Source: Elsinoe ampelina (taxonomy: Eukaryota). Taken from it: 64,000 nt of DNA. The DNA is taken from NCBI GenBank assembly GCA_010093995.1, contig ML992511.1, positions 763,516 through 827,515 of the forward strand. Direction: 5' to 3'. Under the pieces are notes generated by a model. It made no database searches and had not been told where the DNA came from. It was given only the letters and a program-made list of their open reading frames with translations. Position 1 is the stretch's first letter; the number at the start of each line of letters is the position of its first letter. Below, piece after piece: positions 46,263 to 51,496 of the stretch. The translations under genes and the position numbers were made by a program.

Positions 46263-48004
46263 TTAACCCATGACCATACCCTTGAGGCCGGCCATATCGC
46301 CTTCCTTGGCTGCAATCTCAAAGTAAGAGTAGATGATGCTGTGATTGTCAGTGCACGACCGGGTCGCAAGTGGGCAGTGTACTCACGTGACAGCCATAAG
46401 AATTCCGGTACCGCTTCCGAGAGCTCCGACAAGATCGCTGGTGATAGACAGAGCACCGATGCAAGCACCTCCGAAAGCAGCCGCAGTGGGAATGACACGC
46501 TTGAGTTCTCTGTACATTGACTCATCACGGTGACCAGCCATGACCAGACCTTGATCCTTGAGTTGCTTCGCGACGTCACGGGGGCTAGATCCGGAAACCT
46601 CGATCCAAGTCTTGGAGAATGCAGCACATGCAATCAGCATGTAAGCGACGAAGACAGCGGTGTGAACTGGGTCCAGAAGAGCATCCTTGAAGTTGAGAGG
46701 GGGAGACATGTAGTAGGCAAGACCAGAAATCGGCTGCAGCTGGGCAGAGCCATCTTTCGCCTCCCAGGTACCGATGAGCCTGACAAGCAAGTTGTCGCTG
46801 AAGCGGGAGAAGAGCATCTGGCTGACCAAGAAAACGTTGGAGGAAAGAGCGGATTGAAGCATGATGGGCATGTTGGAGGTGTAGAACAGACGGACTGGGT
46901 ACGATCCGCGCATACCACGCTGGCGGTTAGACTTGACGGGAATTTCAACACGGAAGCCCTGGAGGTAGATGACAGCGCCGAAGACAGCCAGGGTCGCGAT
47001 GAGGTTCATGACGTTGGGCAGGTTCTGGCGGTAGAATGCTTCCTTGAGAGCGAGCTGCTTGTTGGGCCAAGTGACCAGCAAGTGGACCAGAGCAATGATG
47101 GCACCCTCAAATTCGGGTCCACGACCAGTGTTGATCGTGGTTGGCGAGAAAGCCTTCCACACGATAGACTCGCAAATGTTGGTCGCGATGAAGAGCGAGA
47201 TACCACTGCCGAGACCATAACCCTTCTGGAGGAGCTCGTCTAAGAGAATGACGATCAAGGCCGCAGTCAAGAGCTGTACAACCAGGAGAACACAGATACC
47301 AGCACCGAGGTCAGATGGCTGCCCGTAGAGACCAGTCAAGACGAAGACACAGGCCTGACCGAAGGAGAGGATGATGGCCAGAAGCTGAGAGAACACGCGT
47401 TAGTCAAGCTCCTGATCGAACGATGGTGTTGCTTTACCTTTTGCGCGGTCTGATAGAGCTCGCGGTCAGCCTTGAGGTCGAGGTTGACGTCGATCAAGTG
47501 GGTACCGGCAAGGAGCTATCCCGTTAGCGAGACCCTGATATGCTCTGAATCTTTCCTTACCTGGAAGACCATGCCGGATGAGATGATGGGAGTGATACCC
47601 AATTCCATGAGCGTTCCTCGATTACTAGCCATCATGACACGAAGCCAGTACAGCGGATCAGAGGTGTCTGTCGCGGGTCAACTCTGTCCATGCAGTATCA
47701 CCAAGCTCTTGTATGGGACCCTACCTGACGACACGATACCGTACAATGGCATCTGGCTCATGACCAAGAAGATCAAGAGTGTCAAACCCGTCCATACTAG
47801 CCGTTGATTGAATGGCGTCTTGGTCTCTGGAATGGCAATCTCGGGGATGAGAGGCGTGAAGGGCTTCACCAGGTCGAGGAATCGTACTGCAGACGAATGT
47901 GTCAGCGAGGGATATTACCAAGATGTGATTGAGATGCGCAGATCCGTTGCTATGATTTGGGAAGCAGCTGTGCGAAGGATCGAGGGATACTGACAGCCAC
48001 TCAT
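46263..48004 (-). CDS. SEC61: Protein translocon subunit Sec61 alpha
   Basis: [82 protein letters not shown]; several introns. Confidence 0.97.
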
Positions 48005-48470
48005 GGTGAAGCTCTAATGACGAGATCGATCGTGAGTCGGTATTGTACAAGCGCTTCGAGTCCTCCAATGGATCGACTTATGATCACGATGGAGAAAGAA
48101 AGGAGAGTAGAAATCAGAACAGTGCGCCTTGAATGTTCTGACCTTGGTCGCAATGCAGTGGTGATGATTCAGAAAATATGTCTGAACGCTGTACGTGTCC
48201 TAGTTTTGGAGCTCCGCAGTGTGGAGCGGCAGTTCCCGCCTCTGCTGCAAAAGGAAGCTCTCCCAGCTTCGGGTTCTCTCAGGGACCAGACGCTGCAGAC
48301 GGGAGCTCCAGGGGTCCTTCAGTGGAAAAGCAATCTCGGTCTCTGGGGCAAATCTCCGTCTCTTCTCGTCAACCACTCACACGACCACAAAATACTCACG
48401 AAGTGTATCACGTTCGGTTGTCTTAGGAACGTAGGTCATGATACATTGCTCACGCTACATTTCTACTCCT

Positions 48471-49587
48471 CTATTCTTCCAGGTCATGATAATGTCGGTA
48501 GGCTCGCTTCAACTGCTCAAAGGTGACAAAGGTGATGATGGTGGATGGAGCTCGACTGATCAGCGCCGGTGTAAGACCTTTGAACATCCAGCCCATGCCT
48601 TCATTACGGAAAGTACGAGCGAGTACGAGCAGCATCGGGTGAGTAGTGCCCTTCATGGTCATCCACCTCGCCTTGAAAACGTCCCATGGGCTGCAGATGA
48701 ATGTCGACAAGAATCCGGCCAAACAGCTCGCAGTGATATGGGTCGGTACCGAGTCCGTCAAAGAAGTACGAGCCATCAATTCGCGCTTGAACACGTCGTA
48801 TCCGGCGAGTTGCGTTGCAGTGGCTATTGCTGCTCTCCCTGCACCAACCCAAACACCCGTCCAAATACTGGCCCAGCCTTCGTGGCGGATCATGGTTGAC
48901 AGCCCGTGAACGACATTGCGGTAGTTTCGGCGCTGTTCTGGCGGCAATGACATGTCGTTCTGCATGCGTAGGCATACCACGTCCGCGAAATTGCCAGCAA
49001 TGCTGCCGATGAATCCTGACGATGCAGCCATTCCTGCCAGCGCAGCCCCTGACGGTGCGTGTGTAGGTGTCGTCGAGTTCTCTTTCAATTTCTCGTACAA
49101 TGCAAAACGGACGGTTGAGTAGGTTAGCGTTCTTGCCAGCGAGGCTGTAAGCTTGTTACAATGTCAGTCGGTGACAATCATCGGGAAGAACATCTTACTC
49201 CTTTCTAGAGTCCGCGGACGCCCTCTTCTCGCCAAATGGTCCGGAATATTTGCGTCATGACCATGCCTTGACCGACATTGGTCTGAGTCTGGAGACGAAC
49301 ACCAGCTACCCTGGATCAGTCTGCTGCATCACGGTGTGGGGCTCAAACAACTTGCCAACACCCAACGGCTGCGTGCAGCAGGAAGTGACCGCGCTAGCCA
49401 AGCCGCCAAAGTAGAAAGGGTAATGGATTACGCCATGTTCAGAGTGAATGGACTTGTTCTTCTCGACCGCGACTGGGTGTTGTTCAACCAGGAGGGAGTG
49501 GACAATAGGTGGTGGAGGTACGGGGGCATTAATGAGCGAAGAGGCTGTAGGTGCTGGTATCATGATCTTGGTACCAGAGTCGGACAT
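48471..49587 (-). CDS. Divergent mitochondrial carrier (dicarboxylate carrier DIC-like) with one in-frame TAG; may be a pseudogene or recoded
   Basis: YPFYFGGLAS, TYSTVRF, DVVCLRMQND..LP..QRRNY, QLAGYD.FK, SPWDVFK, TFVTFEQL. Introns 49355-49306 (GC-AG) and 49198-49152. TAG at 49207-49205 in EGVRGL*KG. Confidence 0.8.
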
Positions 49588-49891
49588 CTGCAGAAGAATA
49601 GAACCAATAGCTGGGTTAGGCGTGATGGAGGATTCTAGCAGATGACTTTGCGGGACAATAATGAAGCGAGACGAAATAGTAGAGACAAGGCGACCCCGTG
49701 TTCGTGGCACGTCCAGCATCTATAGCGCCTGCCTGGCTTGAATAATGTGTCTAATTATCGTACTAACTTGAAAACGCGGTGACCAGCCTCTTGAGGAAAG
49801 AAGGGGGTGGACTTGGAAGAATCTTGGCATGTGAAGCACTTCACTGCATCCTGCACCTCGAGATTTAGGGTATTCTGCAATCAGTGCATCG

Positions 49892-51496
49892 ATGCAGTTC
49901 TCGAAAGCACGGTCTTTACTTAGATCGTCATCGGCACGAATATGTGTCCAGTATCAATGGCACGTATCGAAATGCTGTGCAATACGGAGTTATAGCGCAA
50001 GCTCAAATTCTGGTCAGTACCAAATCTACCATAGTCAGGCGACTGTCTGCTTGATTACCTGGCATGCGGACTGATGCATAACACTTTGAACTTGGATCGC
50101 CTGACTGACGTGATCAGGTCCGTCGAGCTTGACTATACAAGGGAAACGGTACCAAACTGATTCGTGGACCAATGTCCCACCCTCGATCTTAGAACAGCTC
50201 TCACGCCAGCTGCACCTTCAGAAAGACCATCCTATATCAATTACACGGTCACTTATAGAATCTCGCTTTCCGAGCTACCAACATCACAATGACCTCTATC
50301 CCGTCGTCACTGTCGGGCAAAACTTCGACTCTTTGGGCTTCCCTCAGGACCACCCAGGCCGTAGCAGGACTGATACGTACTATATCAACGCCACCACCGT
50401 TCTCCGCACCCACACCTCCGCCCACCAGTCCGATACATTCCGCGCCAACACAAGCAATGGCTTCACAATCTCCGCCGACGTCTACCGTCGGGACGCCGTC
50501 GATCGATCCCATTACCCCATCTTCCACCAAATGGAAGGCGCCATGACATGGGACCGCAACAACGTCTCTCCATCTCAGTCCTTCACCGACCTCATCCAGA
50601 CTGACCTTTCACTTCTCCCGACCCACAACCTTGTCGTCGAGGATCCCAACCCCACCACTCACCCCGACCGTAACCCCCTGCAACCCAACCACGCTCAGGA
50701 CGAGGTCGAACTCATGTCCGCCCACCTCAAGCGCTCTATCGAGAACGTCGTCGTAGAAGTCTTCTCCCGCGCCGCTGCTGCGGCTGGCCATGCTCCCTCC
50801 CGCGAGCCCCTTCGCGTCCGCTGGATCGAGGCCTACTTCCCCTTCACTTCACCCAGCTGGGAACTCGAAGTCTTCTGGCAAGGTGACTGGCTCGAGGTAC
50901 TCGGATGCGGAATCATCCAGCAACCATTGCTAGATACAGCGGACGTACCCTCGCGGTCAGGCTGGGCTTTTGGCATGGGCCTTGAGCGTCTCGCCATGCT
51001 CCTGTTTGAGATACCAGACATACGGCTGTTCTGGAGCAGAGATCAACGCTTTCTAAGCCAGTTCAAGGAGGGAGAAGTGGTCCGCTTCCAGCCATTCAGC
51101 AAATACCCCGCCGCACCGCGAGACGTAGCCTTCTGGCTCCCCAACGCCCCCGAGGCCGGCTCAGGAGACGCAGTAGTAGAAACCGCAGCAGGCACCAGCA
51201 CTGCGCCCTCCCCCGCCGGAGGTCTGGACGTAGAAGGCCGCAGCCGAGAAAGCGAAGAAGCCGCTCCGTTCCACGAGAACGACATCATGGAGATCGTCCG
51301 CAACGTGGCGGGTGATAGCGTCGAGGACGTGCGGTTGGTGGACGAGTTCGTGCACCCGAAGACGGGGAGGAAGAGTCTGTGTTATAGGATTGTGTATAGG
51401 AGTTTGGAGAGGACGTTGACGGGGGAGGAGACGAATGCTTTGCATGAGGAGGTGAGGGGGGAGTTGGTGACGAGGTTTGGGGTGGAGTTGAGGTAG
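49892..51496 (+). CDS. MSF1: Mitochondrial phenylalanine--tRNA ligase
   Basis: Presequence-like exon 1, intron about 50013-50117; HPGRSRTDTYY, LRTHTSAHQ, YFPFTSPSWELE, GWAFGMGLERLAM; C-terminal anticodon-binding domain. Confidence 0.95.

Follow-up and report, generated by a model that had tools for sequence, protein, structure and literature searches.

The gene described here lies on the minus strand of a window of 64,000 nucleotides from the grape-infecting fungus Elsinoe ampelina, between genes for a phenylalanine-tRNA ligase (PheRS) and the SecY family protein SEC61-alpha, and encodes a mitochondrial carrier in three exons, the last of which is 100% identical to the Elsinoe ampelina (Dothideomycetes) model P0002 / KAF2221065.1 (Table 1). 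Joined at their coordinates, the exons form a frame of 340 codons that contains only two stops, the terminal TAG of a 339-residue carrier and a premature TAG at codon 111. The plus strand reads CTA at this position and the minus strand CTC TAG AAA GGA followed by a GT donor, so that the in-frame stop of the original prediction is borne out by the letters as well as by the splicing. The predicted reading of exon 2, IWREEGVRGL followed by the stop and KG and joined to LTASLARTLTYSTVRF, is also correct, and the Trp-containing EGWASIWTG is present in repeat 2 as claimed. The splice signals, which had been called intact, are so for intron 2, a GT-AG intron that is removed exactly in RNA, but not for intron 1, which has a GC donor and is retained in the same RNA contig.

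Table 1. The carrier gene and its neighbours, in positions of the window.
Feature	Position	Strand	Remarks
Exon 1, from the ATG at 49587; covers the N-terminal extension and the first part of carrier repeat 1	49356..49587	-	core pN far below pS
Codon of site A, TAC (Tyr) in the window	49411..49413	-	TAG in L022, L023, L024 and L028, all with a sense codon at site B
Intron 1, 50 nt, GC-AG	49306..49355	-	placed by homology; retained in the X3 RNA contig
Exon 2, holding the premature TAG	49199..49305	-	read with TAG as W, matches Mito_carr positions 31-66 (49199-49300, E 2.6e-07)
Premature in-frame TAG, codon 111 (site B)	49205..49207	-	candidate edited base is the A at 49206
Intron 2, 47 nt, GT-AG	49152..49198	-	spliced exactly in the X3 RNA contig
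Exon 3, 226 codons and terminal TAG, remainder of the carrier	48471..49151	-	Mito_carr match; exon-3 fold model
Extent of the RNA contig, 1347 nt	48357..49750	-	contig ends need not equal transcript ends
Phenylalanine-tRNA ligase (PheRS) open frame, synteny marker	50114..51496	+	neighbour
Exons of SEC61-alpha (SecY family), synteny marker, extent approximate	46383..47914	-	neighbour

The GC donor of intron 1 is placed by homology to orthologues that have GT there, and an in-frame TAG inside this intron would end translation if it were kept. The orthologues with a GT donor also possess a 5-nt microexon and a further intron, both of which are lost in Elsinoe. Directly 5' of the ATG (window 49625-49588) lies a branch-site, pyrimidine-tract and CAG-like sequence as in a 5' UTR intron, which is unspliced in the RNA contig. 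Within exon 1 (window 49470-49415) the segment EKxKSIHSEHGVIHYPF is conserved throughout the orthologue group and absent from the aligned canonical dicarboxylate carriers (DICs).

Judged by its sequence, the gene is DIC-like and encodes a divergent second carrier of the dicarboxylate type with a putative substrate. It shares with DIC (SLC25A10 type) the Mito_carr repeats, the carrier fold (modelled for exon 3 only) and a position in the carrier tree as sister to the canonical fungal DICs, from which it differs by the extra conserved N-terminal segment and by altered signature motifs 1 and 2. Motif 1 reads PLGVAGVR against the canonical PLDLVKVR with the loss of both charges, so that the charged repeat-1 signature of the canonical carrier is absent from this protein, and motif 2 begins with F in place of P. 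The charges of motif 1 act in the gates of the carrier and their loss may make it leaky. The exon-3 model has a pLDDT of 81.9 and its best fold match is human UCP1, which is expected for the subfamily and is not evidence of uncoupling. The genome also holds a canonical DIC paralogue (L002), which shares 45% identity across exon 3 and has TAT at site B. The statement that DIC usually has Tyr here is right for the wider family, where the carrier motif was found in 61 of 149 representatives and 45 of those 61 have Tyr, as well as for this paralogue, but fails for the outgroup of the gene's own orthologue group, which has TGG.

A metagenome scan yielded 21 loci, of which 18 orthologues (60-81% identity) were kept while L031-L033 (25-31% identity) were dropped as distant carriers. 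The 18 loci include five near-duplicate pairs and thus represent 13 distinct ones, the 14 ingroup loci representing 10; L014 lacks exon 1, and L029 and L030 end within exon 3. The original prediction had asked whether orthologues carry TAG or TGG rather than TAY at site B, and the relatives indeed have TAG (10 loci) or TGG (7 loci), with TAC in a single one. With synonymous positions mostly saturated relative to the window, TAG in 10 of 18 loci is more than expected by chance. Where site B holds a sense codon it is TGG in 7 of 8 loci, among them all four of the outgroup (L026, L027, L029 and L030), a well-supported sister group which is stop-free in its covered parts. The four ingroup loci that are sense at site B all have a TAG at a second position, site A, the aromatic codon of the exon 1 motif YPF-x-[FY]GG. 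A premature TAG is therefore found in 14/14 ingroup loci and in the window, one per gene in the covered parts and never as TAA or TGA. A tree uniting the site-A loci is rejected (p-AU 0.0004, for a grouping named after an earlier tree had been seen), which implies that the stop has moved from B to A twice, in two separate lineages. The order PheRS-carrier-SEC61 is common to site-B and site-A loci, PheRS and/or SEC61 adjoining the carrier in L013, L020-L023, L025 and L028. Premature stops are TAG in 9/9 lineages, against five TAG, three TGA and one TAA among terminal stops (Fisher p 0.04, the lineages not being independent), and for comparison a single codon is kept across the seven site-B lineages in only 3 of 34 invariant two-fold columns. 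The exclusive use of TAG argues, with moderate force, that codon identity matters.

Downstream of the stop, where the original prediction had proposed that dN/dS be computed, values of 0.02-0.11 reveal strong purifying selection. Many exon 3 pairs are saturated (pS 0.75 or more), and for the measurable pairs of stop-bearing genes dN/dS is 0.021 (L015-L018), 0.022, 0.045 (L022-L028) and 0.061-0.110 in the others. In exon 2, as in the core of exon 1, pN is far below pS.

Among 54 models of the orthologue group in NCBI/nr, some of them partial, none reads through both sites when searched by pattern, a search in which 4 of 8 canonical control models matched both site patterns; the five models reading GLWKG lack site A. 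The models come from Elsinoe, Sphaceloma, Myriangium, Aureobasidium, Neodothiora, Delphinella, Meristemomyces, Zymoseptoria, Ramularia, Hortaea, Teratosphaeria and others. In automatic models the TAG either becomes a 3' splice site or lies ahead of the predicted start, and all 54 of the database models examined for this gene are thus wrong or partial. The premature stop would extend to the Mycosphaerellales, the stops of Zymoseptoria, Ramularia, Hortaea and Teratosphaeria, like those of E. batatas and S. murrayae, being read solely from gaps in protein models.

RNA of the gene is represented in run X3, another sample from another study, by a contig that spans the TAG unedited and with no other letter at the site. 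Exon 2 and the TAG are kept in this contig, intron 2 is spliced out and intron 1 is retained, from which it follows that the gene is transcribed and that the major form in the X3 sample carries an unedited UAG. No edited molecule (A-to-G at 49206) is seen in this sole RNA contig over the site, which is a single contig of unrecorded stage, and contigs drop rare variants. A search for runs containing the sequence listed none recorded as RNA. Run X2 is possibly the source of the assembly and hence not independent, run X4 offers one contig of 193 nt away from the site, and run X5 yields none. This X4 contig (depth 2.7, labelled as another organism) skips 95 bases at window 48638-48732 with GT..AG ends on the plus strand, which is either an antisense splice or an artefact.

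Because six independent premature stops are reported in AMA1 orthologues (PMC10776026), the CDC20 family was searched in the genome. Its third member (L075) is AMA1-like and reads GLGSNVYF-stop-SEAEG, with a TAG followed by 427 open codons, at a point that is Trp in the Cdc20- and Cdh1-like genes. This TAG occupies positions 2010-2008 of the locus on the minus strand (G000:C1 about 2947485-2947483) in the first WD40 blade, and no canonical intron spans it. The same position is Trp in 117 of 120 homologues (113 by pattern and four by eye), several of which are labelled AMA1. The model of E. batatas skips just this stretch, that of Sphaceloma murrayae and one further protein start 3' of it, and models from Myriangium, Aureobasidium and Zymoseptoria read Trp; the AMA1 stop appears to be limited to Elsinoe and Sphaceloma. 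Elsewhere in L075, a putative 47-nt AT-AC intron (2163-2117, minus strand; G000:C1 2947638-2947592) restores IPFRVLDAPG when removed, which neither of two GT/GC-AG options tested at this junction does, and many homologous models break there. The stops in 10 other WD40 matches are gene ends, match edges or introns. Comparable stops are absent from the genome matches to RID, Spo11, Spo22 and cytosine deaminase, from seven MutS matches (L084, a MutS match with four TGA, was left outside the inspection) and from 10 MFS matches (9 of 324 candidates scored), and among 137 kinase matches the 23 with stops were all judged to have them in introns or outside the exon. One AMA1 match against many negative families implies that such stops are rare here, as they are in Fusarium (71 genes).

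The genome contains two DUF726 genes, and one E. ampelina accession appears among the published orthologues of Ame1. In L035, which is taken to be the Ame1 orthologue, AKS rather than MV is found 31-29 residues before the catalytic Ser, a position counted by spacing to this Ser under the numbering in the accessible text of PMC11087585 rather than aligned to Ame1. The MV residues, which bind Tad3, are described there as essential in F. graminearum, so that editing, if present, would not use the known Ame1 interface. Nine matches to PF00383 are candidates for Tad2 and Tad3. The genome also has a single OTT_1508-like deaminase (L037, G000:C5 about 1418228-1418404, minus strand) with an intact-looking H-A-E..C-x-x-C motif. 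It lies on contig C5 and the carrier on C11, hence there is no deaminase beside the target; L037 adjoins AT-rich DNA, and open frames of at least 110 codons within 20 kb of it show no C2H2 pattern. The sequence context that the original prediction cited in favour of editing, U at -1 and a purine at +1 and +3, is present at 49206 together with a hairpin loop, but does not discriminate, since -1 and +1 are fixed by TAG itself, +3 by the following Lys/Arg codon, and hairpins are common. As 19 of 48 UA sites of the same mRNA fold into hairpin loops too, hairpin prediction was rejected as evidence. A changed genetic code was likewise rejected because TAG terminates this gene and many of its orthologues, and no amber suppressor tRNA is present among nine tRNAs called in the 18 loci (63 of 820 candidates scored).

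The best explanation for this behaviour is a live, selected carrier gene which would be kept off by one premature UAG. A conserved stop where Trp belongs suggests that the RNA is repaired by editing, in a class without reported editing, and an A-to-I correction of UAG to UGG, probably during the sexual stage, is considered quite likely. A deaminase would convert the A of UAG to inosine, the codon would be read as UGG (Trp), and the full carrier would be made only then. UGG is favoured as the product because TGG is the ancestral codon and the most frequent alternative, because a single deamination recovers it, because the context is non-leaky and because AMA1 needs Trp; counting against editing, both sites also occur with Tyr, a residue that can be inserted when UAG is read through by a near-cognate tRNA. 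The timing is less secure and may be that of the sexual stage as in Fusarium, since AMA1, which is meiosis-specific, has a similar stop in this genome and E. ampelina is described as forming ascospores in the accessible text of PMC8295512. Splicing of intron 1 may provide a second lock. More speculatively, such a lock might be favoured because the carrier, having lost the charged residues of motif 1, is costly in growing cells, an idea weakened by the stop-free outgroup having the same degenerate motif 1.

A full-length product could also arise without any change to the RNA if a near-cognate tRNA decoded the UAG, either infrequently or under regulation, and so provided a small dose of carrier, in agreement with the unedited X3 contig. 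Such readthrough is unlikely, as the codons following the stop (AAA, AAG, AGA and CGA at site B, TAT and TTT at site A) provide no leaky context, none of the sites being CAA-UYA; the UAG-CAA-UYA and UGA-CUA contexts do not occur, and C at +4 is found in 1 of 14 loci. Moreover UGA, the leakiest stop and one that is read as Trp, is never used, and the AMA1 stop falls on an almost invariant Trp. The stop might instead not be recoded at all, in which case the gene would act through two polypeptides, the N-terminal one of 110 residues and the C-terminal one made by re-initiation or from a start of its own, or else the TAG would serve as splice acceptor. The automatic models, which splice at the TAG or start behind it, and the in-frame Met codons of exon 3 agree with this, yet its probability is judged to be very low: the 100 bases that precede the TAG contain no match to a branch site and the RNA contig retains exon 2 with the TAG, it is unlikely that splits at codon 59 and at codon 111 would yield one and the same conserved protein, conservation of exon 2 is seen whether it stands before or behind the stop, and any stop codon would serve where TAG alone occurs.

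Editing could be the work of an inducible system of the OLD-ZAO type that responds to virus or stress and is not tied to sex. The presence of one OTT_1508-like deaminase and an Ame1 orthologue without MV would suit such a system, as would the description of OTT_1508-type enzymes as correcting UAG and being able to have targets beyond their neighbour (accessible text of PMC12754623). In addition, Aureobasidium keeps the TAG. The sexual stage of Aureobasidium is not commonly seen. Since the deaminase lies on another contig and has no zinc-finger neighbour, and since AMA1, found as the second target, is specific to meiosis, this system is given only a slim chance of being responsible. An assembly error or a TAC-to-TAG nonsense mutation, which the original prediction had rated as equally simple, is excluded by the TAG in the RNA contig of a second study, the TAG in 10/18 loci and purifying selection. 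The canonical paralogue, the retained intron 1 and the degenerate motif 1 would suit a pseudogene, but with dN/dS of 0.02-0.11 maintained across near-saturated synonymous distances, a pseudogene or assembly error can be given next to no credence.

Under the favoured reading of a UAG corrected by editing, the carrier likely works like the genes of Fusarium graminearum in which a premature stop codon (PSC) is edited by Tad2-Tad3-Ame1 (accessible text of PMC11087585), of which there are 71, including PUK1, AMD1, FgAMA1 (PSC33) and FgRID (Table S1 and accessible text of PMC10776026). In both cases a single TAG, in Fusarium mostly derived from TGG, interrupts an intact gene and is conserved across species, and AMA1 is a target in both, although equivalence of the sites is not established. 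For the carrier, the TAG lies in an intact frame under purifying selection, is conserved, and on conversion to UGG gives the residue of the unstopped orthologues. The present case differs in its host class, the Dothideomycetes, in an Ame1 orthologue without MV, in a stop that alternates between two sites and in showing no edited read in its RNA contig; the available table of the 71 Fusarium genes, many of which are listed as 'hypothetical', does not name a mitochondrial carrier. The OLD-ZAO antiviral system of Neurospora crassa also uses UAG-to-UIG as an on-switch for a costly protein (accessible text of PMC12754623) and has its counterpart here in the OTT_1508-like deaminase, but the target in E. 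ampelina is a carrier (Mito_carr) and not a zinc-finger factor, and no deaminase adjoins it. Sexual-stage editing in Pyronema confluens (Pezizomycetes) is a precedent for an origin independent of the Sordariomycetes, and according to the accessible text of PMC11156358 and PMC11087585 its lineage has a duplicated Ame1, whereas E. ampelina has one accession among the Ame1 orthologues and two DUF726 genes.

It is further proposed, with somewhat better than even confidence, that the Dothideomycetidae have A-to-I mRNA editing of their own, a further independent fungal origin without the Sordariomycete Ame1 motif and at least as old as the split between Elsinoe and Aureobasidium, in which selection would keep exactly one movable, editable stop in the carrier and AMA1 would have been recruited in parallel with the Sordariomycetes. 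The accessible text of PMC11156358 and PMC11087585 places editing in Sordariomycetes and Pyronema, with none found in Aspergillus or Botrytis, while pseudothecial fungi are called untested (PMC7306014) and isolated premature stops are noted in other classes in which editing is undetermined (PMC10776026). The suggestion that this fungus does not belong to any lineage with reported editing therefore holds for the literature covered, which in accessible text also took in PMC13431901, PMC10041177, PMC13123824, PMC13199489, PMC10962958 and PMC4615788 and gave no report of editing in Dothideomycetes, a class whose stops subscription papers or figures (e.g. Fig. 4 of PMC10776026) may list. Reviews, as far as their text is accessible, leave open which fungal classes edit mRNA (PMC7306014, PMC11156358), and two single-base sites in one genome together with the homologous Aureobasidium site offer an answer for the Dothideomycetes from one RT-PCR. 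A stop lost at one codon and gained at another within the same lineage, twice, is direct comparative evidence for a selected lock, which bears on the debate between adaptive and harm-permitting views of editing (accessible text of PMC10776026 and PMC13431901). If editing marks sex, the site could also be used to detect sexual stages that are hidden in black yeasts. A gene adjoining the carrier in L026 finds its closest named match in Cryomyces antarcticus at 56%. The outgroup loci L026, L027, L029 and L030 belong to an unplaced ascomycete lineage with the stop-free sister form of the carrier, which makes it a useful control lineage for editing.
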